From an uncultured Verrucomicrobiae bacterium (lineage in GTDB: Bacteria > Verrucomicrobiota > Verrucomicrobiia > Palsa-1439), in the NCBI GenBank assembly GCA_963812605.1, contig CAWEWF010000001.1, positions 480,001-544,000 on the forward strand: 64,000 nucleotides of DNA, in the 5' to 3' direction. Made by a program: the position numbers and the translations under genes. Shown here piece after piece: positions 31,004 through 54,979 of this stretch (its first letter is position 1; each line of letters opens with the position of its first letter). The notes beneath the pieces are model-generated. The model saw nothing but the letters and a program-made list of their open reading frames with translations, ran no database searches and had not been told where the DNA came from.

Positions 31004-32416
31004 ATGTCGGGAGTCGTACTGGACATGCCAAGAGCGAAGATACTCGTAGTTGACCAAGACATCTCCTGGACCCTTAGGTTGTCGGATCTCCTCATTCAGG
31101 ACGAATGTGAGATGTTTTCGGCGAACTCGGTCCAGGATGCCATGCTGCTTCTTGACGCTCGGAGCATCGACATTGTCATTGCTGAAATCAATATGTCGGG
31201 AACGGACGGCACAGCGTTTCTGGAGCAGATGCGCCAGGTTTTCCCGGAAACCACCGTTATCGTCCACACCGCCAAGGCATCAGTGGAACAGGCCGTTCGG
31301 GCCACCAAATTGGGAATCTTCGATTACCTCCAAAAATCGGAAGATCCCGCGGCACTCACAACGCTACGAGAACGTGTCGGGCAAGTGGTACGGGAAATTG
31401 GGACGCTCGTGCGAACCTCCGTGGTGGACCCCCGAACCCGGGGGCTGCTCGCCGCGCCGGTACAAGGCTTCTACGGGATCATCAGCCAGAACCCGCAGAT
31501 GCGCGACATTTTCGAGTTGATCCAAACCATCGCGGATTCCTACGCCAACGTGCTGATCCACGGAGAAACCGGAACCGGCAAGGAACTCGTGGCCCGCGCC
31601 ATTCATGAGGCGAGCGGCCGTCACGGGAAACCGTTCGTCACGCTCGATTGCACCGCGCTGGCGCGCGAGCTCTTGGAAAGCGAGTTGTTCGGCCACGAAA
31701 AGGGCGCTTTTACGGGCGCGGTGGATCGTCACGTTGGCCGCTTCGAGCGGGCCAATGCGGGAACACTTTTTCTGGACGAAGTCGCCACCATCAACCTCAA
31801 CGTGCAAGCCAAGCTGTTACGGGTCTTGCAGACGCGCACGTTCGAGCGCGTGGGCGGTTCCAAGTCGATCTCGGTGGATGTGCGCATCATTGCGGCAACG
31901 AATCGCCCGCTGGAAACGTGCGTGGCGGAAGGAATTTTTCGCGAAGACTTATATCATCGGCTCAATGTCGTGCAGATCGAGTTGCCACCGTTGCGCGAGC
32001 GCACGGTGGACATCCCGTTGCTGGCGATGGAATTCCTGCGACGATTTTCCCGGCAGAACGGCAAGGACCTGCGCGGATTCACCGACGCCGCTATCGACGT
32101 GCTGTGCCGTTACAATTGGTCCGGCAACGTGCGCGAGTTGGAAAACGTTGTCCTGCAAGCGGTGGTGCTCGCCAAATCCTCGCTTATCGATGCCAGCGAT
32201 TTGCCCAAGCGGATTACGGAATCCAAACCCGTGCTGGGGTCGCAGTCGGCGGCGCTGGCCGACCAGTTGGGAGAACCCGAGAAACAAATTCTCATCAATG
32301 CGCTCCGCCAGCACTCAGGCAACATCAAGCGCACCGCCGAAGCCCTGCAAATCAGCCGCACGACGCTCTACGCCAAGTTGAAAAAATATCAGATCGACCC
32401 CGATGCAATCCGCTGA
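31004..32416 (+). CDS. Sigma-54 enhancer-binding protein (NtrC/FleQ-like) with atypical receiver
   Basis: GETGTGKE, ESELFGHEKGAFTGA, LFLDE, Fis-type HTH; receiver DIVIAEINM has Glu at the phospho-Asp position. Confidence 0.92.
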   Translation: MSGVVLDMPRAKILVVDQDISWTLRLSDLLIQDECEMFSANSVQDAMLLLDARSIDIVIAEINMSGTDGTAFLEQMRQVFPETTVIVHTAKASVEQAVRATKLGIFDYLQKSEDPAALTTLRERVGQVVREIGTLVRTSVVDPRTRGLLAAPVQGFYGIISQNPQMRDIFELIQTIADSYANVLIHGETGTGKELVARAIHEASGRHGKPFVTLDCTALARELLESELFGHEKGAFTGAVDRHVGRFERANAGTLFLDEVATINLNVQAKLLRVLQTRTFERVGGSKSISVDVRIIAATNRPLETCVAEGIFREDLYHRLNVVQIELPPLRERTVDIPLLAMEFLRRFSRQNGKDLRGFTDAAIDVLCRYNWSGNVRELENVVLQAVVLAKSSLIDASDLPKRITESKPVLGSQSAALADQLGEPEKQILINALRQHSGNIKRTAEALQISRTTLYAKLKKYQIDPDAIR

Positions 32417-32423
32417 ACGCGGC

Positions 32424-33926
32424 TCATTTGGACCGGCGGGAATAGATGGCCGCGACCTCATCCGTGTACGACAGGCTCCAATCCTTGTGCAGCGCCAGCA
32501 ACTCATTTAGCGGATGCGCGCGCGGAAGAAACGTCCAATCGACCTTGTACTTGCGCAGGACATCTTCCCAGCCGGGATGAGCCTGGTTTACGGTGTCGAA
32601 ATCCCGGATGAGTTCCGGACCGTAGAAGTCGTTGCGGCCGTCCACGAACACCCTATGCTCGGGCATCACCAACACCAGGTAGCCGCCCCAACCGTAGTCG
32701 TTGAACATCTCGCCACTCACAGCGCGGGGATTAGCGGTGACGAACCGGGTTGCGGCAACTGGGAAATAAGCGGGGAGGATCTCGGTGACCACGATGGGCC
32801 GGCCGCCGAAGAGTGTTGGTTTGGCGAGAACTCCGAGCAACGCGATGAGAACGACGACCACCATCACGCATCCGTTGGTCGAGTGGTCGACCCGGCTCAC
32901 GTTCGCGGAAAGTCTGCGATACCATTCCATTATGCGGCCGGGACCCGCCCTGTGAATGGCTGCCTGCCAATGCTCGGCGAGGATTGGGGTGACAACAATG
33001 GCGAAGATGGGCACATTGCGCACGGTTTGGAGCGCGAGGTGGCCCCACACACTGACCAACAGCACATCGGTCGCGTGAAGCCGTGGGCGCGCCACAATCA
33101 GCAGTACGGCCAACACGAGCAATTGCAACAAGAAGCCGCCCATCGCGGCCGAGTGAAAGCTCGGTGAGCGGAACTCGTTGGTGAACTTCGCAAGCACGGG
33201 CTCGCGCAAAAACTGCACGATGTGCGTGTGCAAGTGCCAGCCGTTCGGATTGATAAGCGAGGCCGCCACGCAGGCCACCCCCGTGATTACGAAGATCGCC
33301 GCCTTTTTTGGTTGGGCAAGATTCCCGGCGGCATAGATGCCGAGCATTACGAAGCCCGTAAAAAACGCCCCGTGAAGGTTCGCCCACAGCGTCATTAGCG
33401 GAATAAGCGGTCCCAACAACCGTAACACCCCCGCCTCGGGATGGCGGTCGAACGCGCGCAACCGCCAAGCGAATACAACGGTGAGCAGAAGCGTTATCAG
33501 ATGCGGTCGGGCCAGCCAATGATGTGTGGAGGCCAGCGCCGCCAGGAGCACAAGACCCGTTGCGAGCAACGACTCACAGTCTTCCGCCACCAGCCAACGA
33601 TACAACAGCCACAGCGTCGTCGCGATCAACAGCGCCCCCACTAATACCGCGCCGTTCCAGCCGAGCTTGTTGCCGGCGGCGGCGAAGATTACTTCGCTGA
33701 GCCACTCTTTTGAGATTAGCGGCGCGCCGAACCGGGTGTGAGAGAATTGGTCGACGCGAATCACGGCGCGGTGCTCGATCATCCACTGGCCGATCCGCCA
33801 ATGGAGGGATGGGTCGCCATCCGCATTGATCATGACCAGCCGCCAGTTCGACAAGCACAGGATGAGCAACACCACCAGCCAGATCATGGCGCCCAGCGAT
33901 GGCAGCAGCCAGCGGCGTGCGTTCAG
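32424..33926 (-). CDS. Polytopic GT-C (STT3/AglB-like) protein, paralogue 5; probable CTG start
   Basis: DGDPSLHW, FSHTR, EWLSE, LARPH, LWANLHG, NPNG, FNDYGWGGYL, VFVDGRNDFY; family call is by motif analogy. Confidence 0.7.
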   Translation of the reverse strand: MNARRWLLPSLGAMIWLVVLLILCLSNWRLVMINADGDPSLHWRIGQWMIEHRAVIRVDQFSHTRFGAPLISKEWLSEVIFAAAGNKLGWNGAVLVGALLIATTLWLLYRWLVAEDCESLLATGLVLLAALASTHHWLARPHLITLLLTVVFAWRLRAFDRHPEAGVLRLLGPLIPLMTLWANLHGAFFTGFVMLGIYAAGNLAQPKKAAIFVITGVACVAASLINPNGWHLHTHIVQFLREPVLAKFTNEFRSPSFHSAAMGGFLLQLLVLAVLLIVARPRLHATDVLLVSVWGHLALQTVRNVPIFAIVVTPILAEHWQAAIHRAGPGRIMEWYRRLSANVSRVDHSTNGCVMVVVVLIALLGVLAKPTLFGGRPIVVTEILPAYFPVAATRFVTANPRAVSGEMFNDYGWGGYLVLVMPEHRVFVDGRNDFYGPELIRDFDTVNQAHPGWEDVLRKYKVDWTFLPRAHPLNELLALHKDWSLSYTDEVAAIYSRRSK

Positions 33927-35482
33927 GGGATCCTCCCATAAATAGTGGCGACCGGATCGCTATAGACCAGTCTCCAATCGACGCGCTGGGCCAACACACG
34001 GTTCAGTGGGTGCTCTGGTGGCAGAATAGTCCAGTCGACCTGATACTTCTTCAAGATGTCTTCCCAACCGGGCTCGACGCTATTCACATGAACGAAGTCC
34101 CTGACAACTTCTTCTCCGTAAGCATCCAGGTTGGGATGGAGGAAGACCTTTCGCTCGGGCATCGCCAGGATGAAATAACCGCCCCACGTGTATTCGTTGA
34201 ACATGTTACCACGCACCGCCGTGGGGGACCGGCGCAGGAATTCAACGGCGCCGGCGGGAAACCGGCTGGCGGGAAGTTCCGTAGCCAGGAGCGGCGGGCC
34301 ACCGAAAAGTTGGGGCTTGGCCAGCACCACAATCATGGCGATCACGGCCAGCCCGGGCAGGCCCCTGGCTCCGGCCATTTGATCCACGGAGATCAAGCGC
34401 GCGGAAAGGTCCCGGTAGCGTTGAAGAATGCGAGACCGGGTTGCGGTGCGCAGGCAGGCATTCCAGTGTTCCGCAAGGATCGGTGTGACCACGATGGCGA
34501 AGAGCGGCCCATTGCGCACCATGCGTAGTGAAAGGACCAGCCAGGCTACCAGCAACAGTCCGTCCGTTACGCGCAAGCGCGGCCGTGCGATTACCAGCAG
34601 TAACAGCACTACGAGCAACAGGATGACGAATGGCACCGTACTGGGACCATGGAAATCCGGCGGGAGATATTCTTGCGCAAATCCCATCAGCAGCGGGCTC
34701 CGCATGTAGCGGAAGATTTGGACGGGGAGATGCCAGCCATTGGGGTTCAGTAGCGAAGCCAGAAAACAGGCCATACCCAGCGCCGTCAGTACCGTTACCC
34801 GCCGGCATAACGCCGGGCGTTGGTCCGCAGCCGCGCGGGCCCAATTCACGACCGTACCGATCCAGTGGATTCCGATCAGCACGAACGCGAAGACGAAAGC
34901 CCCGTGCAGATTGGCCCACAACGCCGTCAGCAAGGGCAGGAGAATCAGCAAGTGGCACGCTGTCGTACGTCCGCGCTCGAACCATCGTAATTGCCACGCG
35001 AAGACGAGCACCAGGAGTTGCGTCGCCAGATGCGGCCGGGGCAGCCAATGCGTCACACACACGGCGGCCGCCAGCAGCGTCAGCAGCGTGGCCAGCAGGA
35101 GTTCATTGCCTTCGGCGAGCAACTGCCGGTGCAACAGCCACACCACCGTGGCGCAGACCACCGAAGCCACGAGGACGATACCGCCCCAACCGAGGAGGTT
35201 ACCCGCGAGCGCGGTCACGATCTCGCTCAGCCACCACAAATTCACCAGCGGTGCGCCTCCGCGGGTGTGTGAGAATAATTCAGTTCGCAGAATCGCGTGA
35301 TGTTGCAACATCCAGTTCCCCTGCTGCCAGTGCCAGCAGGGGTCGGAGTCGGAGGCGACCATTGTCACGCGAGCGGCCGTTAGATTCGCCGCGAGAAAGA
35401 AAACCAACCAGAGGACTGTGCTGACGGATGGCAACCACCATTGGCGGTGTGGAGGCGAACGTTCGATGACGGGAGAGTTCAT
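33923..35482 (-). CDS. Polytopic GT-C-like protein, paralogue 4
   Basis: DSDPCWHW, LPRPH, LWANLHG, FNEYTWGGYF, variant VFLHPNLDAY. Confidence 0.7.
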   Translation of the reverse strand: MNSPVIERSPPHRQWWLPSVSTVLWLVFFLAANLTAARVTMVASDSDPCWHWQQGNWMLQHHAILRTELFSHTRGGAPLVNLWWLSEIVTALAGNLLGWGGIVLVASVVCATVVWLLHRQLLAEGNELLLATLLTLLAAAVCVTHWLPRPHLATQLLVLVFAWQLRWFERGRTTACHLLILLPLLTALWANLHGAFVFAFVLIGIHWIGTVVNWARAAADQRPALCRRVTVLTALGMACFLASLLNPNGWHLPVQIFRYMRSPLLMGFAQEYLPPDFHGPSTVPFVILLLVVLLLLVIARPRLRVTDGLLLVAWLVLSLRMVRNGPLFAIVVTPILAEHWNACLRTATRSRILQRYRDLSARLISVDQMAGARGLPGLAVIAMIVVLAKPQLFGGPPLLATELPASRFPAGAVEFLRRSPTAVRGNMFNEYTWGGYFILAMPERKVFLHPNLDAYGEEVVRDFVHVNSVEPGWEDILKKYQVDWTILPPEHPLNRVLAQRVDWRLVYSDPVATIYGRIP

Positions 35483-37008
35483 GAGCGGTTACGCAAAAAG
35501 ACCATGGTTTGCTGGTTGGAGAAAACCAATTGCCAATCCGTCCGCATTTCCAAAATGCGATTTAGCGGATGCTGCACGGGCAGGAGCGTCCAGCCGACAT
35601 GATATTTCCCGAGCACATTCTCCCAGGCGGGCGTCAGATGGGAGACGTCGGTGAATTCGTGGAGGAAAGCCGCGTCGTAAAAATCGTCGCGACCGTCGAT
35701 GAACACCTTGTGTTCCGGCAGGTAAAGGATGAGGTAGCCGCCCCAGCCGTCTTCGTTGAACATTTCGCCATGGACCGCCTGTGGATGCGCTCGCAGGTAA
35801 TTCACCGTTGCCACCGGAAACCGATTCGCCGAAATCTCCGTCTCCACCATTGGCTGGCCGCCGACGAATACGGGCTTCGCAAGGACGAACAGCATGGCCG
35901 CCAGGACCGTCGCCACCAGGCCGTTGCCGCCCGCGGCGCGATTCAACAAGCCCACGTCGTTCGAGACTCGGCGAAACCAGCGGCTCCCTGGCGAGTCACG
36001 CGTATCCCGCCAGCCGGCGGACAGGTGCTCGGCAAAAATTGGCGTGGCGATCAGCGCGAAAATCGGCACGTTACGCATGGCGTTCAGCCCCGAGTATAAC
36101 CAGAAGGCAACGAGAAGGAGATCGGTGGTTGCCCAGGGCCGGCGGACGACGATGAGCATCAATCCCAGCACCAATAACTGCAGGGCGAAGCCGTGCATCC
36201 CGGCGAAGTGAAAATTGGCGGAGTTCCATTCGCCCGTAAAATGCGCCCGCGTGGAGTTCCACAGGAAACCGAGCAGGTGCTGGTGAAGTTTCCACCCGTT
36301 CGGGTTCAGGAGCGTGGCCAGCGCGCAGGTCGCCCCCAGAATTCCCAGTGTCATTGCGCGGCGGCGCAACGCGGGCTGAAAAACGGCCCCGACGAAATGG
36401 ATGCCGATGAGGATGAGTCCCGCGAGAAATCCACCATGGAGATTTGTCCATAACACGATCAACGGCACCAGCCAGAGGAAAAGTTGGCGTGTGTTCACGA
36501 GATCACGATCAAACCAGCGGAGTTGCCGCTCGAAGATGACTACAAACAGCAGCGTGTACAAATGCGGTCGCGCCAGCCAGTGCGTCGAGCAGGCCAGCGC
36601 CGCCAGCATGACCAACGCCGTCGAAATCAATGTGTCGCTTCCCTCCGCCAGCAGTTGTCGGTGGAGCAACGTCAGGGTGGTCGCAATGACCAGGGCGGCG
36701 ATCAGCACCACGCCGTTCCAGCCCAACGAGTTTCCCGCCGCGGCAAAGAGCACTTCGCTCAGCCATTCCTTGGTAATGAACGGCGCGCTTGGGCGGGTGT
36801 GGGAGAACAGGTCACTGCGCATGATGGCGTGATGTTCGATCATCCAGCTACCGGTGCGCCAATGCCAACACGGGTCGCCATCGGCATTGATGAGCACCTG
36901 GCGCCACCCGGTCAGCAGGATCGCCAGGAAGAACGTGATCCAGAGGAACTGCGTGAGCGACGGCAGCCACCAGTGGCGGCGGGGGGCGATGACGGCGTCG
37001 TTGCTCAT
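35479..37008 (-). CDS. Polytopic GT-C-like protein, paralogue 3
   Basis: DGDPCWHW, EWLSE, LWTNLHG, FNEDGWGGYL, VFIDGRDDFY. Confidence 0.7.
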   Translation of the reverse strand: MSNDAVIAPRRHWWLPSLTQFLWITFFLAILLTGWRQVLINADGDPCWHWRTGSWMIEHHAIMRSDLFSHTRPSAPFITKEWLSEVLFAAAGNSLGWNGVVLIAALVIATTLTLLHRQLLAEGSDTLISTALVMLAALACSTHWLARPHLYTLLFVVIFERQLRWFDRDLVNTRQLFLWLVPLIVLWTNLHGGFLAGLILIGIHFVGAVFQPALRRRAMTLGILGATCALATLLNPNGWKLHQHLLGFLWNSTRAHFTGEWNSANFHFAGMHGFALQLLVLGLMLIVVRRPWATTDLLLVAFWLYSGLNAMRNVPIFALIATPIFAEHLSAGWRDTRDSPGSRWFRRVSNDVGLLNRAAGGNGLVATVLAAMLFVLAKPVFVGGQPMVETEISANRFPVATVNYLRAHPQAVHGEMFNEDGWGGYLILYLPEHKVFIDGRDDFYDAAFLHEFTDVSHLTPAWENVLGKYHVGWTLLPVQHPLNRILEMRTDWQLVFSNQQTMVFLRNRS

Positions 37009-38516
37009 GACAGGTGCGAGAAGACCAGCGCTTGTTGATTGGAGAAGACCAGGCTCCAGTGCGGGCTCAGTTCGAGGATGCGATTCAGCGGATGCTGTAC
37101 GGGCAGGATTGTCCAACCGATGCGGTATTTCGCAAAGACAGCTTCCCAACCGCGTTGCGGCACGTCCATCGTTTGGAAATCTCGCAACAATTCGACGCTA
37201 TAAAACTCCGCGTCGAAGAATGGCTTCCGCTCCGGCAACGCAAACTCGAGATAGCCGCCCCATAAGAAGGTATTGAACATTTCCCCGTGGATGATTTCGG
37301 GGTGCTCCCGCAGGTAGGCCACCGCATCGGTCGGATAACGACTTGCCGGAAACCCGGTCGTCAACGCCGATTTGGCGAGAATCAACAGCACACAGAGAAG
37401 CGCCGCGGCAATGGGCAGGGCGCTACCCGCCGCGCGATCGAGGGCCGTTACCCGCACGGCCCACACGTGGTAGCCTTGCCACCATGACGAAGGGAGTTCG
37501 GTCCGCACGAAATCCGTGAGCCAATGCGCCAGCAGGGGAGTGACGAGCAGCACGAAGATCGGGACATTGCGAGCGGAGAACAACGCGAGGCAACCCCAGC
37601 CGCCCACCAGCAGGACATCGGTCGCGTCCAATGACGGATGCACCACCATCAACGTCACGCCCAGCAGGAGCAACAGCAACAGGAAGCCTCGCATGCCGAC
37701 CGTGTGAAAATTCGGCGACGCGAATTCGGTCGTGAGATCCGCCAGTTCCGGTGAACGCAAGAAACCGAGAATCTGCGCGTGCAGCTTCCAGCCGTTCGGG
37801 TTCACGAACGACGCGGCGAAACAAGTCAATAGCAACACAGCAAGCGTTTTCGACATTGTGTATAAGCCGGATCGCCGCCACGCGGTACAGGCGGAGCCGA
37901 GGGCATACATGGCAATGAGCACCAAGCCCGTCATGAACGCGCCGTGCAGGTTGGCCCACAAGATCATCAATGGCGGCAAGGACAGGAACACTTGCTGCGC
38001 GGATGCGCGTCCCTGTTGGAACCGGCGCAATTGCCAGGCAAACACCAGCGTTAGCAAGTGGGTGAACAACAGTGGGCGCGCCAGCCAATGCATCGAGCCG
38101 GCGAGCATGGCCACGAGAACCAAAACCGTCGCGAGCAGGGGGTCGCAACCGTCCGCCAGCAATTGGCGGTGAAGCAGCCAGTAGATGGTGGCAATCAGCG
38201 TGGCGGCGACAAGAACGACTCCATTCCAGCCAAACTGATCACCCGCCGCCGCGTACACCACTTCGCTGAGCCACTCCATCGACACAAACGATCCCTGATG
38301 CGTATGAAGGACGTTGTTTTCCCGGACAATTGTATGATGCTGGATCGTTAATTCGCCGAATCGGCGATGCCAGGCGGGATCGCTGTCAGCACTGATGAGG
38401 ACGATGCGGGCACTGGTCAGATTCAACCCGAGAAAGAGCATGATCCAGATCATCGCGCTCAGCGACGGAAGCCACGCGCGGGCGCGGATGTCGTGGTGGG
38501 GCGAAGCGTCCTTCAC
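37005..38516 (-). CDS. Polytopic GT-C-like protein, paralogue 2 (GTG start)
   Basis: DSDPAWHR, EWLSE, LWANLHG, FNTFLWGGYL, shortened PFFDAEFY. Confidence 0.7.
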   Translation of the reverse strand: MKDASPHHDIRARAWLPSLSAMIWIMLFLGLNLTSARIVLISADSDPAWHRRFGELTIQHHTIVRENNVLHTHQGSFVSMEWLSEVVYAAAGDQFGWNGVVLVAATLIATIYWLLHRQLLADGCDPLLATVLVLVAMLAGSMHWLARPLLFTHLLTLVFAWQLRRFQQGRASAQQVFLSLPPLMILWANLHGAFMTGLVLIAMYALGSACTAWRRSGLYTMSKTLAVLLLTCFAASFVNPNGWKLHAQILGFLRSPELADLTTEFASPNFHTVGMRGFLLLLLLLGVTLMVVHPSLDATDVLLVGGWGCLALFSARNVPIFVLLVTPLLAHWLTDFVRTELPSSWWQGYHVWAVRVTALDRAAGSALPIAAALLCVLLILAKSALTTGFPASRYPTDAVAYLREHPEIIHGEMFNTFLWGGYLEFALPERKPFFDAEFYSVELLRDFQTMDVPQRGWEAVFAKYRIGWTILPVQHPLNRILELSPHWSLVFSNQQALVFSHLS

Positions 38517-40055
38517 GGTTGTTTGCGGAAAATGGTCGCGACCTCGTTGGAGTAAACGCATTGCCAATCCGGCAGCAGGGCGAGCGCCAGATTCAGGCGG
38601 TGCTCGGTGGGCAGCAGCGTCCAGCTCACGTGGTATTGCTCGAGGGCCTGCATCCAGTTGGTTCGCAGCGCCGAGGTGTCGTCATATTGACGAATCAACG
38701 ATTCCCCGTAGAAATCCGTGCGGCCATCCACAAACACGCGATGTTCCGGCAGGGCGTGCAGCAAATACCCGCCCCAGACGTACTGGTTGAACATATTGCC
38801 CTTGAATTGCTCGGGATGCATCCGGATGTAATCGACCGCCGCGACCGGCCATTTTTTTGGCGGCATCTCGGTCGGGCGCGGAAAGCCCGCGATGGCGACC
38901 AGCGCGGCCACCCCGACGAGCAGCCCGCCGCGCGATACCGCATGCGTTTCGCCCAGCCGATTCGACAACCGCCGCACCCAGGCCGGCGAACCGTCGGCGA
39001 GCGCGGTGGCGAGAATCGGCGCCACAAAGATCGCCAGCAACGGGACATTGCGTCCCACGTAGAGGGCCAGATACGTCCAGACGATCAACATCAGCCCGGC
39101 GGTTGGCGACAACCGCGGCCGCACCAGCGCCAATGTCAGAAATGTGACCCCCAGCCAGGCAAGAAACCCGCGCGAGTCGGCCTCGTGGAAATTGGAAGAG
39201 GCGTATTCGGCCAGCCAGTTTGTCAGGTAATCGGAGTGGAGAAACTCAAGATTGAGCAGATGCAGTCGGTAACCGTTCGGATTCACCAGTGAAACCAATC
39301 CGCACAGCACGATGACACCCGTGAGTGCCCGAAGCTTCTGTCGCGCCGCGAGCCAGCGGGCGGGGTCGGTCCGCCCCAGAAACAGCTCGATCACGGCGCC
39401 GAGCCAGTACACACCCAAGCGTGATGAAGCCGGCGAGATAACCGCCATGGAAATTAACCCACAACAGTGTCAGCACGCCGAGAACGATGCCCAACCGGCG
39501 GGCCGACCCATCGCGTTCGAAACGGCGCAGGGCGTCGCACCAGAGCACGGCGAACAGAAAACTGAAGGCATGCGGTCGCGCGAGCCAGTGCGTGCAGGCG
39601 GCCCAGGCAGCGAGCAAGGCGACGAAAATCGCCACCGCATGATTGCCTGTCTCGCGCAATAATTGACGATGGAGCAGGGCGAAGGTCGTGGCGATCAACA
39701 ACGCGGCGACGACGACCAGTCCATATAATCCCGCCACGCGACCCGCGAGAGCGAAAATGAGTTCCGACAGCCATTCCTTCGAGACGATGGGCTCGCCGTA
39801 GCGCGTGTGCGAAAAGACATCGGTGCGAATCGGGATGTGACCCGTTTCCAGCATGTATTCACCGACACGCCAATGCAGACACGGGTCACCGTCACTGGCG
39901 ACCATCATGGTGCGCCACGGTTGCGCCAGCAGGATCAACAGGATCGTCAACCACAACCACTGGGTGAGCGACGGCATCAGCCACGGCAATACGCCACTGC
40001 GTGACAAGGGTGGGGAAGGTGGCTCCGCTTCGGATGGATTAGCGTTCGCAGCCAT
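38513..40055 (-). CDS. Polytopic GT-C-like protein, paralogue 1; frameshift near 39415
   Basis: DGDPCLHW, EWLSE, LWVNFHG in one frame; NPNG, FNQYVWGGYL, VFVDGRTDFY in the next. Confidence 0.68.
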
Positions 40056-40087
40056 GGCGCGCAGCTTACGAAGCGCCGCCGCAATGT

Positions 40088-45170: not shown

Positions 45171-45198
45171 TCGGTTGGGAAGAGGCAACCATGGCCCG

Positions 45199-47060: not shown

Positions 47061-47075
47061 TGGCACGTAAGCTGC
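47061..47075 (+). promoter_or_regulatory. Sigma-54 promoter of flp
   Basis: TGGCACGTAAGCTGC, near-consensus TGGCACG-N4-(T)TGC. Confidence 0.75.
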
Positions 47076-47154
47076 GACTGTATTTTCTCGTATAAACGTG
47101 AGTCTGTTGGATCGTTGAGCAATACGAAAAAGCCAGATGAAGGAGGTGAATGAG

Positions 47155-47328
47155 ATGAAGAGAACTCTCCGAAAAATGTATCGCGGGCTGAAGTCGCGGA
47201 AGGGCCAGAGCTTGGTCGAATACGCGCTTATCCTGGCTCTCATCGCCGTCGTGGCGATCTTGGTGCTAAAGGGCCTTGGCGGTAAGGTCAACAACACCTT
47301 GTCGTCTGTGAATGCGAACTTGCCATAA
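47155..47328 (+). CDS. flp: Flp (type IVb/c) pilin
   Basis: KG|QSLVEYALILALIAVVAI Flp motif; strong RBS AAGGAGGTGA. Confidence 0.93.
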   Translation: MKRTLRKMYRGLKSRKGQSLVEYALILALIAVVAILVLKGLGGKVNNTLSSVNANLP

Positions 47329-47539: not shown

Positions 47540-47555
47540 GGGCACAGCATCTGCT
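47540..47555 (+). promoter_or_regulatory. Candidate sigma-54 promoter of cpaB
   Basis: GGGCACAGCATCTGCT = GG-N10-GC. Confidence 0.5.
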
Positions 47556-47590: not shown

Positions 47591-48428
47591 ATGGCTAAGA
47601 AATCTGGTGCAGGTGGAATCATTTTGGCCGCCGTCGTCGCGGCAACAGTCGCTGTCTATTTGGTCTGGAATATGTGGCGGCAGGAAGAGCTGCAGTCCGC
47701 AAAGCACTGGACTGAAGTGGTTGCCGCGCAACAGGACATACCGGCACGCACCAAAATAACACGTGAAATGGTCACTTTGACCCGCTACCCGAAGGAGCTC
47801 GTCATCGACGGCGCCATCCGAAATCCCAAGGATGTGGACGGGCATACCACGCTGGTAAGGATCAAGGCCAAGGAACAAATTCGGACATCGGATATTCTGG
47901 GGGAGGGACAGGCTCCGGGCCTGGCGTACGACATCCCGCCCGGTATGCGCGCCATCGCCATCGGCGCCGGCGAAGTCATGGCCGTGGGTTCGACCGTGAA
48001 ACCCGGCGACCGCGTTGACATTTTGGCCACCTATACGGACCCGGTGGCGCATCAGGAAACCACGCAGATGATCCTGCAGAACGTGCTCGTGCTCGCCGTC
48101 AACCAGGGCGAGACCGATCAGCAGGGCAAGTCAGGCGCCAAGAGTTCGATGACGCTGGCGGTAAAACCGGAAGAAGCCGAGTTGCTGACGGCGGCGGACC
48201 GCGCCGGTGCGCTGCGTGTGGCCTTGCGCGGCCTCAACGAGAAAGCCGTGATAACGACCGCAGGGCGTTGGCACGCGGGATTTCCAGGGCAAGAACACCC
48301 TCACGTTCTCGACGACGCCTCCCGACCCGCAGAGATCGACACCGATCATTATCAGCCCGCCGCGGAACCAACGGCCGGAACTCGTGATTGTCAGGGGCAT
48401 ACAAGAGACAACCGTACCGCAGCAATAG
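47591..48428 (+). CDS. cpaB: Flp pilus assembly protein CpaB/RcpC; frameshift near 48263
   Basis: SAF domain (VVAAQQDIPART), PGMRAIAI, VKPGDRVDI, LQNVLVLA; the shifted frame restores an ELVIVRG C-terminus ending at TAG 48428. Confidence 0.85.
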
Positions 48429-48471
48429 TCGCGAAGTACAGGAATTCGAAAAAGGAAAGGACAGCGTATAA

Positions 48472-50016
48472 ATGAAGAAGATGCAATGGAGGGGAATGGG
48501 GATTGTAGTTGCACTGTTAGCCATGGGGCTATTCGCAGTTTCCGACATCCGTGCGGACCAGCAAACGATTCAGGTGAGTGTCGGCCAAGCGGTTGCGGTT
48601 CCGAGCGAGAATGTTTCGAAAATTGCCCTCGCCGACCCGTCCATCGCGGACGTCGTAAACCTGTCCGACAAGGAACTTAGCGTCATCGGCAAGAAAGCCG
48701 GTATCACCACGCTGACGATCGTCAAGAGTGATGGCTCGGCAACCCAGATGTACCGCATTGAAGTCGGCAACGACGCCGTCGCGGATACCATCCGCCAGAT
48801 GATCGGGAACACCAACGTCACCGTCCATGCCATTGGCGATGCGCTGGTGCTCGACGGCAAAGTGAACGACGAAATCGAAGCGCAGCGCGCTGCGGCAATC
48901 GCCGGCGCCTACAAGCCGCAGGTCGTCAATCTTTTGGAAGTCTCGAAGCCCCGCCAGATCAAAATTCGTATCCGCATCGCGGAAGTAAATACGGAGGCGA
49001 TCAAGAATATCGGCTTCCAATGGTTTGGACCGCAGGGCCAGGTCCAGTACGCCATGCAGTATCTTGGTGGCGGCTCGATTGTAAACGGATTTGTCCCGAC
49101 CGCCAGCGAGTTTGGCACGGAAGGAACAACGTTCAGTCCGACCACCGTGTCAATGACCCTGCTCCTGGATATGTTGATCACCAAGAGCTATGCGCGGCTT
49201 CTTTCGGAACCCACCTTGGTGACCTTCAGCGGGAAGGAAGCGAGTTTCCTTGTGGGTGAAGAGATTCCCATCGTTCAGCAATTGCCGCAGTCGTTCACGG
49301 TGGAATTCAAGGAAGTCGGCGTGCGCATGAAGATCAAACCCACGTCCGACAGTGAAAACCGGATCAATACAACCATTCACGCGGAAGTTAGTCAGGTGAT
49401 TGGCACCGGCGCGAATGGTATTCCGATTATCGGCGCCAAGACGGCCGATACGACGCTGCAAGCCAGCGATGGGCAGACCATCGTGATTGGTGGTTTGCTG
49501 GAAAACAACGTGGATCGCGACATATTGCGGAAGCTCCCCTGGCTGGCGGAAATCCCGGTCATTGGGGCGCTGTTTCGTGACAAGCAGTTCGACCAGACCA
49601 AGCGCGAAGTTCTGTTTTTCATGACACCGGAAGTGGTCAAGGACGTCGATATGGATACTGCCAATGCCGCAAAGACGCCCGGAATGCAACATTGGGTCAC
49701 GACGTGGAACAAGGGGAAGATGATTCTGCCGCCGGATAAGAAGGACGACTGGGGCTTGCACAATCCTCAGCATATGGGCTTCCCCGTGCAGGACGAGGAT
49801 TCTACAAAGCCGGCCAAGCGGTCCAAGCCAACGGCTTCTACGGCCCCGGCCCCCGCCGCGAAGCCCGCGCCGGCGGCGAAGCCGGCGGCTGCGGCTCCCT
49901 CGGTCGTAACGCCAGCCGTTACGGCCCCACCGACGGCGACCACGCCCCCACCGGCGGCTGGGACTGCGCCTCAGGAGCCATCCACAAACTATTCTCCGTC
50001 CCGCCCGGCGGAGTGA
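48472..50016 (+). CDS. cpaC: Tad secretin CpaC/RcpA with BON domain and Pro/Ala/Thr-rich tail
   Basis: ALADPSIADV, EPTLVTFSGKEASFLVG, GQTIVIGGL, PWLAEIPVIGALF. Confidence 0.92.
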   Translation: MKKMQWRGMGIVVALLAMGLFAVSDIRADQQTIQVSVGQAVAVPSENVSKIALADPSIADVVNLSDKELSVIGKKAGITTLTIVKSDGSATQMYRIEVGNDAVADTIRQMIGNTNVTVHAIGDALVLDGKVNDEIEAQRAAAIAGAYKPQVVNLLEVSKPRQIKIRIRIAEVNTEAIKNIGFQWFGPQGQVQYAMQYLGGGSIVNGFVPTASEFGTEGTTFSPTTVSMTLLLDMLITKSYARLLSEPTLVTFSGKEASFLVGEEIPIVQQLPQSFTVEFKEVGVRMKIKPTSDSENRINTTIHAEVSQVIGTGANGIPIIGAKTADTTLQASDGQTIVIGGLLENNVDRDILRKLPWLAEIPVIGALFRDKQFDQTKREVLFFMTPEVVKDVDMDTANAAKTPGMQHWVTTWNKGKMILPPDKKDDWGLHNPQHMGFPVQDEDSTKPAKRSKPTASTAPAPAAKPAPAAKPAAAAPSVVTPAVTAPPTATTPPPAAGTAPQEPSTNYSPSRPAE

Positions 50017-50087: not shown

Positions 50088-51302
50088 ATGGATCGTATCA
50101 CCGTCATCATTGCGGAAAATGAGCTCAGCGAGCGCGAGAAGCTGAAGGGCCAGCTTGCCAATGAGCAGCGCATCGAGGTCATCGGAGAAGCGCGCGACGG
50201 GAAAGAGTGCCTGGAGCTCGTCAAGAAGCAGCGGCCGGCAGTTGTCCTTATCAAGGAAGATCTGCCGGTGGTCAACGGGCTGGCGGTCGCCGAGCAGATC
50301 ACGTCGGAAATGCCCGAAGTGGGCGTGATCCTCATACTGACGGGTTCGGAAGGCCAGGAAGTCTGGCACAAGATGCTTCGCGCCGGTATCAAGGAGTTTC
50401 TTACCCGTCCATTTCCGGACGATCGGCTTCTCGAAGAAGTGCGCAAAGTTCACGGCATCCAGTCCAAGGCGGCGAAACACGCGGCGACGGTGGTTCCCGC
50501 AAAACCCGTCGAGCCCGAAGGCCCAAAACGACGAGTCATCACCGTCACCGGTCCGCGCGGTGGCTGCGGCAAGACAATCATTGCGGCCAATCTCGCGGTG
50601 GCCCTGGCTGGTGTGAGCGAAAAGGTGGCCTTGGTCGACCTGAACCTCTGGGGCGGCGATGTCGCCATGCTCCTGGATGTTGCGCCGAAGCGCACCTTGG
50701 GCGATCTGTTGCCGGGTTTTGGCGGCATCGACTATGATGTGGTTGATAGCGTCATGTCCAAGCACGCGTCGGGGGTCTCGGTGTTGGCCGCGCCGTTGAC
50801 GGGTACATTCGATGGCTCGACGCTCTCCCGTTACATGGTGCAAAGCATCCTCGAAGCCCTGCGCGAGAATTACGAATACACGATCATCGATACCGGCTAC
50901 GCCAATTTGGAGTCCACTCTCGCCGCGATGGATTATTCAGACCTGATCCTCGTGGTGGTGGGCATGGATCTGCCGCGATTGCGCGATGGGAAGCTTTACT
51001 TGAAGAATTTGCTGGCCGCCAATTACCCGAAGGAGAAAATCCGGGTCATTGTCAATCGCTCCACCAATTCGAAGGAAATCTCCTCGTCCGAGGTCGAGAC
51101 GATCCTGGAGTTTCCGGTGACGACGCAGGTTCCGAGCGACGATGCCCTGGTGGGTTCATCGGTGAACCTCGGGCAGGCCTTTGTCAGTTCCAGCCCCGGC
51201 AAGCCGGTGTCCAGGGCGATCCTGGGCCTGGCGGAAATGGTGTCGCCGCTGGCCACGAGCGTGAAGAAACGCTCCGGGAAATGGTTTTCGTTTATACAAT
51301 GA
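50088..51302 (+). CDS. cpaE: CpaE/TadZ (pseudo-receiver + MinD/ParA-like ATPase)
   Basis: Receiver lacking phospho-Asp (VLIKEDLP); GPRGGCGKT; IIDTG. Confidence 0.88.
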   Translation: MDRITVIIAENELSEREKLKGQLANEQRIEVIGEARDGKECLELVKKQRPAVVLIKEDLPVVNGLAVAEQITSEMPEVGVILILTGSEGQEVWHKMLRAGIKEFLTRPFPDDRLLEEVRKVHGIQSKAAKHAATVVPAKPVEPEGPKRRVITVTGPRGGCGKTIIAANLAVALAGVSEKVALVDLNLWGGDVAMLLDVAPKRTLGDLLPGFGGIDYDVVDSVMSKHASGVSVLAAPLTGTFDGSTLSRYMVQSILEALRENYEYTIIDTGYANLESTLAAMDYSDLILVVVGMDLPRLRDGKLYLKNLLAANYPKEKIRVIVNRSTNSKEISSSEVETILEFPVTTQVPSDDALVGSSVNLGQAFVSSSPGKPVSRAILGLAEMVSPLATSVKKRSGKWFSFIQ

Positions 51303-51332
51303 ATGTGAGCGAGGAGGAGGTGCAGCGAATTT

Positions 51333-52631
51333 ATGGCGAACACTCCGGAAATCAGCACACAATTATATCTTGAGTCCAAAAACGCCATCCTGGCGTATTT
51401 GATCCAGAATATTGACCAGAAACTTCTCGAAAAAGGCGACGAGGCGCTGCTGCGACGTCGTGTCGAGGAATTGGTCGAGGAGAAACTTCGCTCCGAAAAA
51501 CTGCCCTTCTCGCGCCAGATGCGCAATCGGTTGGTCTCCGACATGGCCGACGAAATTCTGGGTTTCGGGCCCATCGAACCGTTGCTGCGCGACCCCACCG
51601 TCACCGAAGTCATGGTCAACCGTCCCGATCAGGTGTATTGCGAGCGCTTTGGCAAACTCGAATTGACAGACATCCAATTTCGTGACCTCCAACATATTCG
51701 TCACGTCATCGACAAAATTGTCACCCCGCTGGGCCGGCGCGTGGATGAATCCAGCCCGATGGTGGATGCCCGCCTGCCCGACGGCTCGCGCGTGAACGCC
51801 ATCATCTCGCCGTTGTCGCTCAACGGTCCGGTGCTCACGATTCGTAAGTTTTCCGTTGACCCGTATACCGTGGAAGATCTGATCGGGTTTGGCACACTGA
51901 CCCAGGGCATGGCGGCGTTTCTGGCTGCGTGCGTGAAGGTCAAACTCAACGTGCTGGTTTCGGGCGGTTCTGGCGCGGGCAAGACGACGCTGCTCAATGT
52001 GTTGTCGTCCTTCATTCCCGAAGGCGAGCGCGTGGTCACCGTCGAGGACGCGGCGGAATTGAAGCTCCACCAGCCCCACGTCGTGCGGCTTGAGTCGCGT
52101 CCGCCCAATATCGAGGGCAAGGGCGAGATCAAAATTCGCGACCTTGTCCGCAATTGCCTGCGTATGCGTCCCGACCGCATTGTGGTCGGCGAAGTGCGTG
52201 GCGGTGAGGCGCTCGATATGTTGCAAGCGATGAACACCGGCCATGAAGGCTCCATTTCAACGGTCCACTCCAACACGCCACGTGACGCGCTGGCCCGCCT
52301 GGAGACGATGGTGATGATGTCCGGCATGGACTTGCCCTCGCGCGCTATTCGCGAGCAGATTGCCGCGGCGGTCCATCTGATCGTCCAGATCGGTCGCTTG
52401 AGCGACGGCAGCCGCAAGGTCATCAGCGTGACCGAAATCCAGGGAATGGAAGGCAACGTAATCGTCCTGCAGGACCTGTTCTCCTTCCAGCAGAAGGGTG
52501 TCGGCGAAGGCGGCAAGGTGCTGGGAACGATGCAGGCCACGGGGATGGTGCCGAAATTCATTGACCGCTTCAATGCGGCGAGCATCCATTTGCCCGCGGA
52601 GATCTTTAAGAGAACGAGCGAGGTTCGCTAA
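51333..52631 (+). CDS. cpaF: Tad pilus ATPase CpaF/TadA
   Basis: GGSGAGKTT, EDAAEL, LRMRPDRIVVGEVRG, MNTGHEG. Confidence 0.95.
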   Translation: MANTPEISTQLYLESKNAILAYLIQNIDQKLLEKGDEALLRRRVEELVEEKLRSEKLPFSRQMRNRLVSDMADEILGFGPIEPLLRDPTVTEVMVNRPDQVYCERFGKLELTDIQFRDLQHIRHVIDKIVTPLGRRVDESSPMVDARLPDGSRVNAIISPLSLNGPVLTIRKFSVDPYTVEDLIGFGTLTQGMAAFLAACVKVKLNVLVSGGSGAGKTTLLNVLSSFIPEGERVVTVEDAAELKLHQPHVVRLESRPPNIEGKGEIKIRDLVRNCLRMRPDRIVVGEVRGGEALDMLQAMNTGHEGSISTVHSNTPRDALARLETMVMMSGMDLPSRAIREQIAAAVHLIVQIGRLSDGSRKVISVTEIQGMEGNVIVLQDLFSFQQKGVGEGGKVLGTMQATGMVPKFIDRFNAASIHLPAEIFKRTSEVR

Positions 52632-52632
52632 C

Positions 52633-53625
52633 ATGGCAAGCATAGTACCCATTATCGTCCTGGTCGCGGCGGCGATTTTGTTGCTCGGCTACGGCGTCTA
52701 TTTGCAGGTGACCCGGCGGCGGACCATCCTGGCCGAGCGTCTGGAAACGTACGCCAACATCGAAGAAGAAGCCGCGCGAACCACCGACGAGGAATTGCAA
52801 AAACTGGGTCAGTTCCCGCGGTTTTTGCACATGATATTCGGGCCTGGGTACATGGCGCGCGTGGAGGAAAACCTGGCGCGGGCCGATATTCCCATGCGCC
52901 CCACCGAGTATTTGTTGTTGCGGGCAGTGCTGGTCCTGGTCGGATACCTGATCGGCCGCTATGTCCTGGGCTATCTACACAGCGGTCTCATCCTGGCCGT
53001 GGCGGGTTTCATCGCGCCGATCCTGTTCGTACGCGTCCACCAGAATCGGCGACGATCCAAATTCGTCCGGCAACTGGCCGATGCGCTGATGCTGCTGACC
53101 AACTCCTTGCGTTCAGGCTACGGGTTCCTCAAGGGCCTGGAGCTGGTCGCCAAGGAAATGGGCGATCCGATTTCGAAGGAATTGAACCGCATGTTGCGGG
53201 AGGTCAACCTGGGGACAACCGTGGACGACGCGCTGTTAAACCTCGGGCGACGCATGAACAGTCAGGATTTGGACATTGTCATCGGCGCCTACCTCGTGCA
53301 GAAGGATGTTGGCGGCAATCTGACCGAAATCATGGAGAAGGTGGCCGAGACCATCCGTGAGCGGTTACGTATTCAGGGAGATGTGCGCGTGCTGACGACA
53401 CAAGGGAAGCTCTCGGGATTCATCGTGGGCTTCATGCCCTTCGTGGTCTTTTTGGTCCTCATCCTGTCTGCGCCTGATTATTTCAGCGTCATGTTTGGGC
53501 CGCCCATCTGGACGCATTTTCTGGGTTACGACGTGCCGACGGGCGTGGCGCTGATGGCGGGGGCTGTGGCCTGGCAACTGATTGGGGCCTACATGATTTA
53601 TAAGATCGTCTCCGTAAAGGTCTAA
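52633..53625 (+). CDS. tadB: TadB (T2SS-F family)
   Basis: QLADAL..L..SLRSG, GGNLTEI, TTQGKLSG. Confidence 0.92.
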   Translation: MASIVPIIVLVAAAILLLGYGVYLQVTRRRTILAERLETYANIEEEAARTTDEELQKLGQFPRFLHMIFGPGYMARVEENLARADIPMRPTEYLLLRAVLVLVGYLIGRYVLGYLHSGLILAVAGFIAPILFVRVHQNRRRSKFVRQLADALMLLTNSLRSGYGFLKGLELVAKEMGDPISKELNRMLREVNLGTTVDDALLNLGRRMNSQDLDIVIGAYLVQKDVGGNLTEIMEKVAETIRERLRIQGDVRVLTTQGKLSGFIVGFMPFVVFLVLILSAPDYFSVMFGPPIWTHFLGYDVPTGVALMAGAVAWQLIGAYMIYKIVSVKV

Positions 53626-53626
53626 C

Positions 53627-54554
53627 ATGTTTATTTTCACCATTATCACGGCACTTTTGGCGATCATCTTCGCGGCGGTCGGGTTCTACCGCACATCGGA
53701 CCGGTTTACCGTTGGCAAACGCATCGAACAGATCATGATCACCGATGCGCAGACGGCGGACGAGGAACTGGCGAAACCGTTTGTTCAGCGCGTGTTGTTG
53801 CCGCTCGGTGATTACGTCGCGAAATTGTTTCGCGGATATACACCCGCCGAGATGGCCGAGCGCACGCACAAGAAACTCGTGAAAGCGGGACTGTTCCCGC
53901 GCGTGACCGGGGTGCAATTGGTGGGCTTGTGCTGGTTCAGCGCCTCGGCTTGTGTCCTCATCGTGTTCCTGGTGATTATCGCCAGGGGTTCGCCGGGGAG
54001 GGGTCAGTTACACCGATCCGCTCAATTTGTTGCTCTTGGTGCTCGGTGCGCTGGGTGGATACGGCCTGCCGCAGTTCGTGCTCAGCCGGAAGGTGCGGAC
54101 CCGGCAGGATCTGATCCTCACCAACCTGCCTTATTCGATTGATATTCTTTCGATCAGCGTCGAGGCCGGCATGGGTTTTGACGCCGCAGTCGGCTACACG
54201 ATGCGCAAGATCAAGGGGCCGCTGGCCGAGGAATTTTCCAAGACCCTGAATGAGATCCGCCTGGGCAAACCGCGCCTGGAAGCCCTGGAGGATTTGGGCG
54301 ATCGCACGGGCGTGGACGACTTGAAGACATTCATTACGGCCGTGGTGCATGCCAGTCGCCTGGGCGGCAGCATCACCAATACGCTTCGTATTCAGGCGGA
54401 TTCGATCCGTACCCGCCGCCGTCAGCGCGCGCAAGAACAGGCCATGAAGGCCCCAATCAAGATCGTGTTCCCGTTGGTCCTGTTCATTTTTCCCGCGCTC
54501 TTCATCGTCTTGCTCGGTCCGGCGTTCATTAGCATTTTGCGCCAACTCCAGTAA
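53627..54554 (+). CDS. tadC: TadC; frameshift near 53995
   Basis: LP..ID.LSISVEAGMGFDAA, AMKAPIKIVFPLVLFIFP; split over two frames at a G-run. Confidence 0.88.
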
Positions 54555-54565
54555 ACGGCGCGGGA

Positions 54566-54979
54566 GTGGATTTGATGGTTTTGGTTAACGCCACGAAGAA
54601 AACGGTTGTCTCCGACAATTGCCATTTCGCCAACACCGTCCTGAAACGCATGGTCGGGTTGTTGAATCGTGGACAATTCGACGCGGGTGAAGGCCTGCTG
54701 CTGGACCGTTGCTACGGGATCCATACCTTCGGAATGCGTTTCCCCATCGATGTGCTGTTTCTCGACAAAGACCTCTGCGTCATCCGCGCCGTGAAAGCCC
54801 TGCCGCCGTACCGGACGTGCGTCGTCAAAAAGTCCGTTTACGTCCTGGAAGTTCCCGTTGGGGCGCTCGATGCCTCACGCACGGGCGAAGGCGACCAGAT
54901 TCAAATCCGCACGGCCAACACCGATACCACAAGCAGTGGACGGATGGCCGGGGTGGAAAAGACCCCCACCCAGTCTTAA
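54566..54979 (+). CDS. DUF192 family protein
   Basis: RMVGLL, GEGLL, IHTFGMRFPIDVLFLD, VLEVP. Confidence 0.85.
   Translation: MDLMVLVNATKKTVVSDNCHFANTVLKRMVGLLNRGQFDAGEGLLLDRCYGIHTFGMRFPIDVLFLDKDLCVIRAVKALPPYRTCVVKKSVYVLEVPVGALDASRTGEGDQIQIRTANTDTTSSGRMAGVEKTPTQS

Follow-up and report, generated by a model that had tools for sequence, protein, structure and literature searches.

Organisation of the locus

The stretch of DNA considered here, i.e., a window of 64,000 nucleotides (nt) on a Verrucomicrobiae contig from a soil Verrucomicrobium, to whose positions all plain coordinates refer, harbours a block of nine genes for polytopic membrane proteins next to the genes of a Tad pilus, and eight of these proteins are putative glycosyltransferases (GTs) of the GT-C type. 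As such, the locus is discussed as a candidate system for the glycosylation of Flp, namely the pilin of the Tad pilus, or of another pilus subunit. Following the gene order established from open reading frames and Pfam scans of the window proteins, the membrane-enzyme block extends over 14.4 kb (32424-46806), is organised in two divergent operons and is flanked by an NtrC-type sigma-54 activator on one side and by flp-cpaBCEF-tadBC-DUF192 on the other. This layout was proposed in an initial annotation and is borne out by the open reading frames and Pfam matches, as is a divergent spacing below 100 bp, which amounts to 98 bp with the minus-strand operon starting at 42226 or to 56 bp with a start at 42268.

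The minus-strand operon, from 42226 down to 32424, consists of six tightly spaced genes, i.e., a fusion gene and five paralogues of about 490 amino acids (aa), where P2 to P5 are 45-51% identical to P1. It is headed by the gene (40088-42226) of a predicted membrane protein of the major facilitator superfamily (MFS) fold with an inserted spermidine-synthase-fold domain (approximately residues 228-500), followed by P5 (38513-40055), which is frameshifted near 39411-39420 with its N-terminal and C-terminal halves in different frames, P4 (37005-38561, with a start at 38561 or 38516; 45-47% identity to P1), P3 (35479-37008, with the start at 37008; 51% identity), P2 (33923-35482; 49-51% identity) and, at the distal end, P1 (32424-33887). 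On the plus strand, the second operon (42325-46806) comprises (i) a GT87-family GT-C gene (42325-43605), (ii) a PMT_2/TMEM260-like, i.e., DUF2723-like, GT-C gene (43602-45170), and (iii) a paralogue of the latter (45175-46806, with start candidates at 45175, 45199 and 45247). Within both operons, neighbouring genes either overlap or are separated by no more than 35 nt. The flanking activator (31004-32416, plus strand) is an NtrC-type sigma-54-dependent response regulator by its Pfam matches to Sigma54_activat (E-value 3.1e-70), Response_reg, AAA_lid_14 and HTH_8.

An unnamed family with a predicted GT-C fold

The five paralogues of the window match no family of Pfam or NCBIfam. Among 35 aligned relatives, none matches any Pfam family at E<=0.01 or STT3 at E<=1, and the same holds for Pfam families in 32 more distant representatives (0/32). 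Profile searching against the sequences of the PDB only returned spurious kinase matches (E about 0.01), the ESM Atlas yielded clusters without a name, those of Dpy19, PMT_2 and STT3 (score 0.92) serving as leads only, and the relatives go under the name "hypothetical protein" in public sources. The family is nonetheless large: among 1.84 billion cluster representatives, its profile retrieved 29,038 at E<=0.001, a number that falls to 19,322 at E<=1e-10 and to 5,299 at E<=1e-30.

The relationship of the family came from structure prediction. An AlphaFold (AF2) model of P1 built from 35 sequences (pLDDT 88.3, pTM 0.86) retrieved 22 Foldseek matches at E<=0.001, all of them GT-C enzymes and with STT3 at the top (1.9e-7). 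On structural alignment by VIA-align, the model superposed best onto yeast STT3 (Z 20.3 over 434 residues, with a root-mean-square deviation (rmsd) of 4.6 A), then onto AglB (Z 18.3), Pmt1/2 (17.7), PglB (17.5), DPY19 (16.2), ArnT (15.7) and AftA (14.4). The 115 C-terminal residues matched the globular domain of AglB-S2 (Z 8.9, rmsd 3.0 A, 109 residues aligned), which is a single moderate match. As modelled, P1 is thus a protein of GT-C fold, nearest to STT3, AglB and PglB in both its membrane and C-terminal domains, and P2 to P5 would be assigned to GT-C by paralogy; on the same footing, the GT-C nature of the paralogues claimed initially stands by fold for P1 and by paralogy for the other four. 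STT3, AglB and PglB are protein-modifying GT-Cs, and the likeness to them is structural, with no relation visible at the level of sequence (PF02516 in 0/35 members, blank profile search of the PDB).

Two aspartates of the first loop, D23 and D25, are invariant in 35/35 family members along with some 50 further columns of the alignment, among them E238 and, in the C-terminal domain, a WGGY motif. The D-x-D-P signature is kept in all five window paralogues, either as DGD, as in the first outer loop of P1, or as DSD, as in P2, and the D-x-D loop would face the outside according to the P1 model and the arginines preceding the first transmembrane helix. Oligosaccharyltransferases (OSTs) are characterised by the motif WWDYG. 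The corresponding pattern WWD[YWF]G occurs in 0/35 members, and WGGY, as its possible counterpart, in 35/35; likewise, the proline motifs of the pilin glycosyltransferase TfpW and of EmbC are found in 0/35 members.

A distant relative (26-29% identity) is encoded elsewhere in the genome (genome G000, contig C7, 80517-81932; locus L070, 8359-10638) in a frame of 759 aa with C-terminal TPR repeats. It adjoins genes for a UbiA-family prenyltransferase and a type I phosphodiesterase, and this arrangement resembles TfpW with its lipid-linked arabinose genes.

Linkage to pilus genes across lineages

The genomic neighbourhood of the family was analysed in 59 loci containing relatives of the paralogues (one genome per species; designated by L and a number), which were searched with the window proteins and Pfam. 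A sample of 301 Verrucomicrobiota genomes only gave distant matches besides the source genome and was not used for linkage. In the Verrucomicrobiia, 32 loci possess two to five tandem copies, usually followed by a homologue of the activator gene, which in most related loci is convergent to the last GT-C paralogue. Tad genes occur within the locus stretch itself in five Verrucomicrobial loci (L012, L018, L019, L033 and L035). From a whole-genome search for RcpC/CpaB, cpaB was further found 1-11 kb past the locus edge in 14/15 other Verrucomicrobial genomes, always on the GT87/DUF2723-like side and in most cases as the sole cpaB of the genome, where location on the same contig was established by sequence overlap for L011 and L024 and by equal contig numbers for the other 12. 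Linkage to tad in the Verrucomicrobiia thus amounts to 19/21 assessable loci, eleven loci on short contigs lying outside the count. An adjacency of cpaB first considered for L041, L034 and L013 was rejected, as sequence comparison puts cpaB on different contigs.

Outside the Verrucomicrobiia, two GT-C copies lie beside two flp genes and cpaB-F in the one locus from the Gemmatimonadales (L047; 1/1 linked), and all five loci with flanks from the Acidobacteriota are linked to tad (5/5), with the order flp-GT-C-cpaB in L054, L063 and L064 and tadC-DUF192-GT-C in L059 and L060. An independent set of 201 Acidobacteriota genomes, 32 of them with cpaB, was searched with the family profile and RcpC. 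It gave 16 matches at E<=1e-58 in 13 genomes, and for 12/16 (in 11/13 genomes) cpaB was found on the same contig at a distance of 0.3-11 kb. The arrangement was confirmed in 10/10 linked regions examined, often as GT-C-flp-flp-cpaB and sometimes with a sigma-54 activator, and a weaker relative was found beside cpaB in L084, earlier counted as unlinked. Around these single GT-C genes beside or between flp and cpaB, the queries found no other glycan genes in the Acidobacteriota. Adjacency by chance would be expected for far fewer than 1/100 per gene in genomes of 3.5-7.6 Mb, bearing in mind that the sampled genomes are related and not independent. A lack of tad association among homologues had been named by the initial annotation as the observation that would tell against its proposal, and the outcome is the opposite (19/21 in the Verrucomicrobiia, 1/1 in the Gemmatimonadales, 5/5 and 12/16 in the Acidobacteriota).

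DUF192 was also considered as a marker of GT-C-linked tad loci and rejected as such, as it is present in 8/16 unlinked and 7/10 linked Acidobacterial loci. Acidobacterial tad loci with DUF192 are L074, L079-L082, L085-L087, L089-L091, L093, L095 and L096.

In a more distant clade (about 26% identity), represented by unclassified metagenome-assembled genomes (MAGs), the GT-C gene is the last of a type IVa pilus operon of the order pilB-pilT-pilC-GT-C in 3/3 loci (L056, 3609-11245; L058, 5849-11275; L062, 170-5567), with the secretin gene pilQ upstream in L056 only. Membership of the family thus extends beyond Tad systems. Such a presence in the machinery operons of both Tad and type IVa pili, together with the lack of a known activity, of a Pfam match and of WWDYG in any of 35 members, could be expected if these GT-C-fold proteins, rather than being transferases, served type IV filament machines as accessory or assembly factors. 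This reading is very improbable in view of the invariant D-x-D of the first outer loop and the many invariant polar loop residues, as in active GT-Cs, and of the retention of five paralogues beside bona fide GT families.

The companion genes

The gene heading the minus-strand operon had been annotated initially as a methyltransferase. Its product matches Spermine_synth (PF01564; 8.5e-11, 42.2 bits versus a cut-off of 22.9) better than generic methyltransferase models, and falls far below the cut-off of the NCBIfam equivalog (42 versus 260 bits). The protein was modelled (AF2; pLDDT 83.6) through P0121, which differs from the window protein at 2/712 residues. In the model, residues 228-500 approximately form a full spermidine-synthase fold including the N-terminal beta domain (Foldseek 3.4e-8; VIA-align Z 20.7, rmsd 3.3 A, 238 residues aligned), and the helices on either side of this insert, taken together, adopt the fold of an MFS transporter (Z 22.9 over 315 residues), with the lipid flippases LtaA (Z 20.1) and Spns1 (Z 20.2) among its structural neighbours. 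A methyltransferase thus gives way to a predicted MFS-fold protein with an inserted spermidine-synthase-fold domain. Relatives are named "predicted membrane-bound spermidine synthase" in public sources, and the protein shares with the membrane-bound or MFS-fused spermidine synthases of the COG4262 type a SpeE fold joined to an MFS-fold membrane domain; it differs from the COG4262 type in that its catalytic domain sits between two seven-helix halves and not at an end.

The cofactor loop of spermidine synthases is GGGDGG. In the fusion it reads GAGSGN, so that either S-adenosylmethionine or its decarboxylated form may be used. Counts of Lys and Arg in the loops of 32 aligned relatives, taking the model helices as boundaries, are in agreement with 7+7 helices, both termini inside and the soluble domain outside. 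By this charge bias, which is a crude rule, the spermidine-synthase-fold domain may be periplasmic, and if so, an enzyme with a nucleotide cofactor in the periplasm would be unusual and without explanation. The possibly methylated sugars suggested initially stay hypothetical, the domain having this fold, an altered cofactor motif and a perhaps periplasmic location. A defence-system reading, arising from the only PADLOC match (mad2, 4.5e-16, to the Rossmann-fold portion of the fusion protein), was set aside as reflecting a shared methyltransferase-type fold.

A second copy of the fusion, 61% identical, is present in the same genome (G000, C8, 53898-55994; L067, 7839-10028), where its neighbours are two PMT_2-type GT-C genes, one of them bearing TPR repeats, along with a prepilin-like N_methyl/DUF1559 gene; the pairing of the fusion with GT-C genes hence recurs. 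A third copy (35% identity) is located at C1, 447603-449577. Among the best 12 literature matches, no paper joins spermidine-synthase and GT-C terms.

As for the plus-strand operon, the GT87 assignment is based on a PF09594 match spanning residues 86-324 (1.4e-21, 77.8 bits versus a gathering cut-off of 25). The second gene matches PMT_2 (3.8e-9, 37.4 bits versus 26.1) and comes just under the cut-off of the TMEM260-like model (4.9e-5, 23.6 bits versus 24.2), and the third, without any Pfam match, is placed by identity to its neighbour alone (40% over 515 aa). The initial description as a GT87-like gene and two DUF2723-like genes can therefore be kept for GT87, and PMT_2 is also above its Pfam cut-off, but DUF2723 membership as such stays below the cut-off for one gene and derives from paralogy for the other.

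PMT_2 and TMEM260-like proteins are families of protein O-mannosyltransferases, and further GT87, DUF2723-like and fusion copies are encoded elsewhere in the same genome. Both observations would suit a general periplasmic O-glycosylation pathway with many targets, situated near tad by co-regulation or with Flp as one client, much as the general systems of Neisseria also modify pilin in the published account available to us in part (PMC9239064). The tight synteny with tad in four phyla and the position between flp and cpaB would not be expected from a pathway of this kind, which is accordingly regarded as unlikely.

Tad operon, pilins and regulation

The Tad set at the locus, all on the plus strand and assigned by Pfam, comprises (i) flp (47137-47328, with an alternative start at 47155; Flp_Fap 5.4e-9), whose product displays a G/QSLVEY processing motif, (ii) cpaB/rcpC (47591-48475; RcpC 1.7e-27 and SAF), (iii) the secretin gene cpaC/rcpA (48472-50016; Secretin 5.9e-38 and T2SS-T3SS_pil_N), (iv) cpaE/tadZ (50088-51302; Response_reg, AAA_31 and CbiA), for a receiver with a ParA/MinD-like ATPase, (v) the ATPase gene cpaF/tadA (51333-52631; T2SSE 8.3e-66), (vi) tadB (52498-53625, the true start being probably near 52660; T2SSF 8.6e-19), and (vii) tadC (53627-54554), split over two frames with T2SSF (3.6e-22) in its 3' part; a DUF192 protein (54566-54979; PF02643 3.4e-15) follows. 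In this genome of 4.17 Mb (15 contigs, about 90% complete), cpaF, tadB and tadC form a single set, located here, and cpaF has no other close copy. A prepilin peptidase is matched only once, away from the locus, at G000, C14, 645549-646215, in two open frames. The genome possesses four flp genes, three of which encode near-identical mature pilins differing at one residue (K/Q). Besides that of the window, they lie away from tad at C6, 433133-433303, C5, 236621-236791 and C4, 114555-114713, two being near-identical and one divergent.

Regarding regulation, a candidate sigma-54 promoter, TGGCAC-N5-CTGC (47061-47076, plus strand), is found 76 nt 5' of flp, and a weaker sigma-54-like site with two mismatches, GGGCAC-N5-CTGC (47540-47555, plus strand), some 50 nt 5' of cpaB. 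An element of the pattern TGGCAY-N5-YTGC precedes flp in the window and in L012, L018 and L019 (4/4 close loci) and was not found in seven more distant flp upstream regions. Across the window, sigma-54 matches are at chance level (36 versus 37.5 expected from shuffles), so that the site before flp is supported by its position and conservation alone. In the divergent intergenic region between the two GT operons (42227-42324), no convincing sigma-54 site was detected.

History of the paralogues and surroundings of the locus

The descent of the paralogues was examined in a tree of 113 copies built with FastTree, for which the support values are SH-like only and some long branches are flagged as unreliable. 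All copies of Verrucomicrobial origin group in a single clade (support 99), to which the Gemmatimonadales are sister, with the Acidobacteriota and others outside. Within this clade, subfamilies track the position in the array, namely a P5-type (24 rows), a P4-type (14 rows, support 100), a P3-type (10 rows, support 100), a P2-type, to which P2 belongs as its own orthologous subfamily, and a P1-type. The P5-type is sister to a clade unlinked to tad, and the smallest arrays consist of one P5-type and one P1-type gene. From this conservation of position, the duplications appear old and retained, which points to a putative division of labour rather than to recent diversification. Variation among close relatives concerns the copy number of GT87 (0-4 in the stretches examined) and the occurrence of the fusion gene; nine loci carry it intact or split, and L019 retains a remnant. 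The diversification of paralogues once envisaged is not supported, since they fall into old orthologous groups of conserved order and only GT87 number and fusion presence vary.

In the surroundings of the locus, a fragment of an IS200-like transposase (Y1_Tnp) is present at 29200-29673, i.e., 1.3 kb 5' of the activator gene, and another Y1_Tnp copy is found at G000, C1, approximately 452.1-453.0 kb (L071, 12073-13029). Upstream of the locus, the open frames 25917-28565, 22483-23721 and 24230-25234 (882, 412 and 334 aa, respectively) match no Pfam or NCBIfam family. The segment 12001-14000 has a G+C content of 0.50 versus about 0.60 in the rest of the window.

A putative glycosylation pathway of the Tad pilus

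GT-C enzymes act on the outer face of the membrane, where they use polyprenyl-phosphate donors as the source of the sugars transferred. The Flp prepilin is a bitopic protein of the inner membrane with its short C-terminal tail in the periplasm, and this tail is the obvious candidate acceptor. In the mechanism favoured here, the locus would encode a glycosylation pathway that operates in the periplasm and serves the Tad pilus specifically. At its core, the unnamed GT-C, made up of a polytopic domain with the outer-loop D-x-D and of a small periplasmic C-terminal domain, would use a polyprenyl-phosphate donor to attach a sugar to a subunit of the pilus, with the Flp tail as the likeliest acceptor, presumably modified in the inner membrane ahead of assembly. 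In the Verrucomicrobial lineage, this GT-C gene would have been duplicated into up to five old, specialised subfamilies. The GT87 and PMT_2/TMEM260-like GT-Cs could extend or branch the glycan, the operon-heading MFS/SpeE-fold fusion may flip or modify the lipid-linked donor, and the flanking sigma-54 activator would switch on flp and possibly the whole unit. That the GT-Cs glycosylate Flp or another pilus subunit is given a probability of roughly 0.55, and some kind of functional connection with the Tad pilus has a considerably higher probability.

Several observations weigh against glycosylation of the pilus. At the window locus, the GT genes are 0.3-15 kb from flp, none of them adjoining it and the paralogues being 7-15 kb away, and no polyprenyl-phosphate sugar synthase (GT2) or GtrA-type flippase was identified. 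Regarding linkage, cpaB is on other contigs in L013 and L034, the latter being without a tad gene within 21 kb; the single-copy sister clade (L039-L044) is tad-linked in 0/6 loci, whose flanks were searched, and is found amid glycoside hydrolases; 4/16 Acidobacterial matches are unlinked, namely one at a contig edge, one as a second copy, one with no cpaB detected in the genome and one with cpaB on another contig; and in L065 and L066, pilB/pilC-like genes are 7-9 kb off and were left out of the linked count. Concerning the acceptor, no Ser/Thr column is invariant among the aligned Flp pilins, N-x-S/T occurs in the window Flp and some others and is absent from L018, L019 and the Acidobacterial Flps, and the Ser/Thr content of Flp tails averages 3.9 in linked (15 pilins) versus 4.0 in unlinked loci (22 pilins), in a small and phylogenetically confounded sample. 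The Tad pilus of Caulobacter, an organism not checked for the family, shows no glycan density as far as the available part of the report tells (PMC10710030). Both a conserved N-glycosylation sequon in Flp and an enrichment of Flp tails in Ser/Thr at GT-C-linked loci were rejected, the former for lack of conservation across loci and the latter for equality with unlinked loci. As to Flp, which the initial annotation named beside other exported proteins as a possible target of decoration, its role as acceptor is hence putative, no conserved Ser/Thr or N-x-S/T site having been found.

The frameshifts of P5 (39411-39420) and tadC (approximately 53900-54070) in the assembly belong with these points. 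Contigs of two soil-metagenome runs from different studies, X1 and X4, are each one base short at P5 (39417 and 39420, respectively), by which the frame is restored, it being understood that at contig depths of 3.6 and 2.7 either alone could be an error; fusion genes are also split in several related long-read MAGs. From both observations, the shift in P5 would be an assembly error or a very recent change. As to tadC, a homologue aligns to it in frame 3, then in frame 1, and the split frames of tadC, P5 and the prepilin peptidase gene together suggest indel errors in the assembly.

The lack of a conserved acceptor site in Flp and the sister clade amid glycoside hydrolases would rather fit a separate glycoconjugate of the envelope (for instance a polysaccharide with adhesive properties, a glycolipid or a modified lipopolysaccharide) that is produced alongside Tad pili to help attachment and is not itself bound to the pilus. 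Eight GT-Cs with GT87 and a flippase-like MFS part neighbouring LtaA and Spns1 do resemble an assembly line for a polymer or glycolipid, GT87 comprises mannosyltransferases of mannans and glycolipids in its Pfam description, and the second fusion stands beside other PMT_2 GT-Cs with no tad gene nearby. A stand-alone polymer pathway is, however, hard to reconcile with the lone Acidobacterial GT-C between or beside flp and cpaB, and the nearest structures, namely STT3, AglB, PglB, Pmt and DPY19, modify proteins and are not polymerases, a ranking of folds being weak evidence. Such a glycoconjugate is thus considered possible but doubtful, ahead of the general O-glycosylation pathway discussed above.

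Starting again from glycosylation of the pilus, a more specific combination can be formulated, which taken as a whole is improbable. The family would be the Flp glycosyltransferase, OST-like with WGGY in place of WWDYG, acting on tail sites other than sequons and associated with Tad since its origin; Tad pili are derived from archaeal pili, whose subunits are glycosylated by AglB. The fusion would then decorate the glycan as a periplasmic S-adenosylmethionine-type transferase fed by its own transporter and adding aminopropyl or methyl groups.

Relation to known systems and significance

The closest known system is TfpW, described as a GT-C encoded beside pilA that glycosylates the pilin in Pseudomonas aeruginosa strains of group IV and, more precisely, as an arabinosyltransferase next to its own pilin gene, the lipid-linked sugar being made elsewhere (bioRxiv 10.1101/2020.04.19.049825, from the part available). 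From this account, TfpW is likewise a GT-C that spans the membrane repeatedly, bears an acidic motif in periplasmic loop 1 and ends in a C-terminal domain on the periplasmic side, and its adjacency to the pilin gene, which is its hallmark, has a counterpart in the Acidobacterial loci, unlike the more remote paralogues of the window. As there described, TfpW nevertheless serves a type IVa pilin with a globular head, where the partner of the present family is Tad/Flp, and it possesses a C-terminal TPR and the motif YX6PFX7P, where the present family has no TPR Pfam matches, an alpha/beta C-terminal domain as modelled and the motif in 0/35 members; TfpW is set apart here by description, motifs and domains. 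OSTs differ further in their sequon, with Flp having no conserved N-x-S/T.

For periplasmic GT-Cs, a flipped lipid-linked donor is required, hence three components, namely a synthase, a flippase and the GT-C, according to the available part of a published account (PMC8035078). The same logic could apply here, with the MFS part of the fusion as a possible flippase from its fold neighbours, with the difference that neither the GT2 synthase nor the GtrA-type flippase was found at the present locus. In the excerpts available, pilin glycosylation is reported to block pilus-dependent phages in P. aeruginosa (bioRxiv 10.1101/150227), non-glycosylated type IV pilin-like subunits fail to assemble in archaea (PMC4471445), and Flp1 of A. 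actinomycetemcomitans is described as glycosylated (PMC6182317). In the literature covered, a 2026 review included, partly as excerpts and with subscription journals outside its scope, no enzyme is assigned to Flp glycosylation and no GT-C family is tied to tad loci.

A GT-C gene beside a pilin gene is hence of a known kind, as for TfpW, and what appears new is the family itself, the class of pilus and the multi-enzyme array with the MFS/SpeE-fold fusion. Here, a large family without a Pfam model is tied by gene order to Tad pili in at least four phyla and, judging from sequence and gene neighbourhood, is a good candidate for the enzyme glycosylating Flp pili. The single Acidobacterial gene between flp and cpaB provides the cleanest test case for the role of the family, and the MFS/SpeE-fold fusion, found twice beside GT-C genes in the genome, is a second unexplained component worth study. 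If the proposal holds true, glycosylation of pilins by GT-Cs would be found in the Tad class as well as in type IVa pili, a new family with an oligosaccharyltransferase-like architecture would be added to the GT-Cs, and the surface variation of Tad pili, which act as adhesins and phage receptors, could find an explanation.

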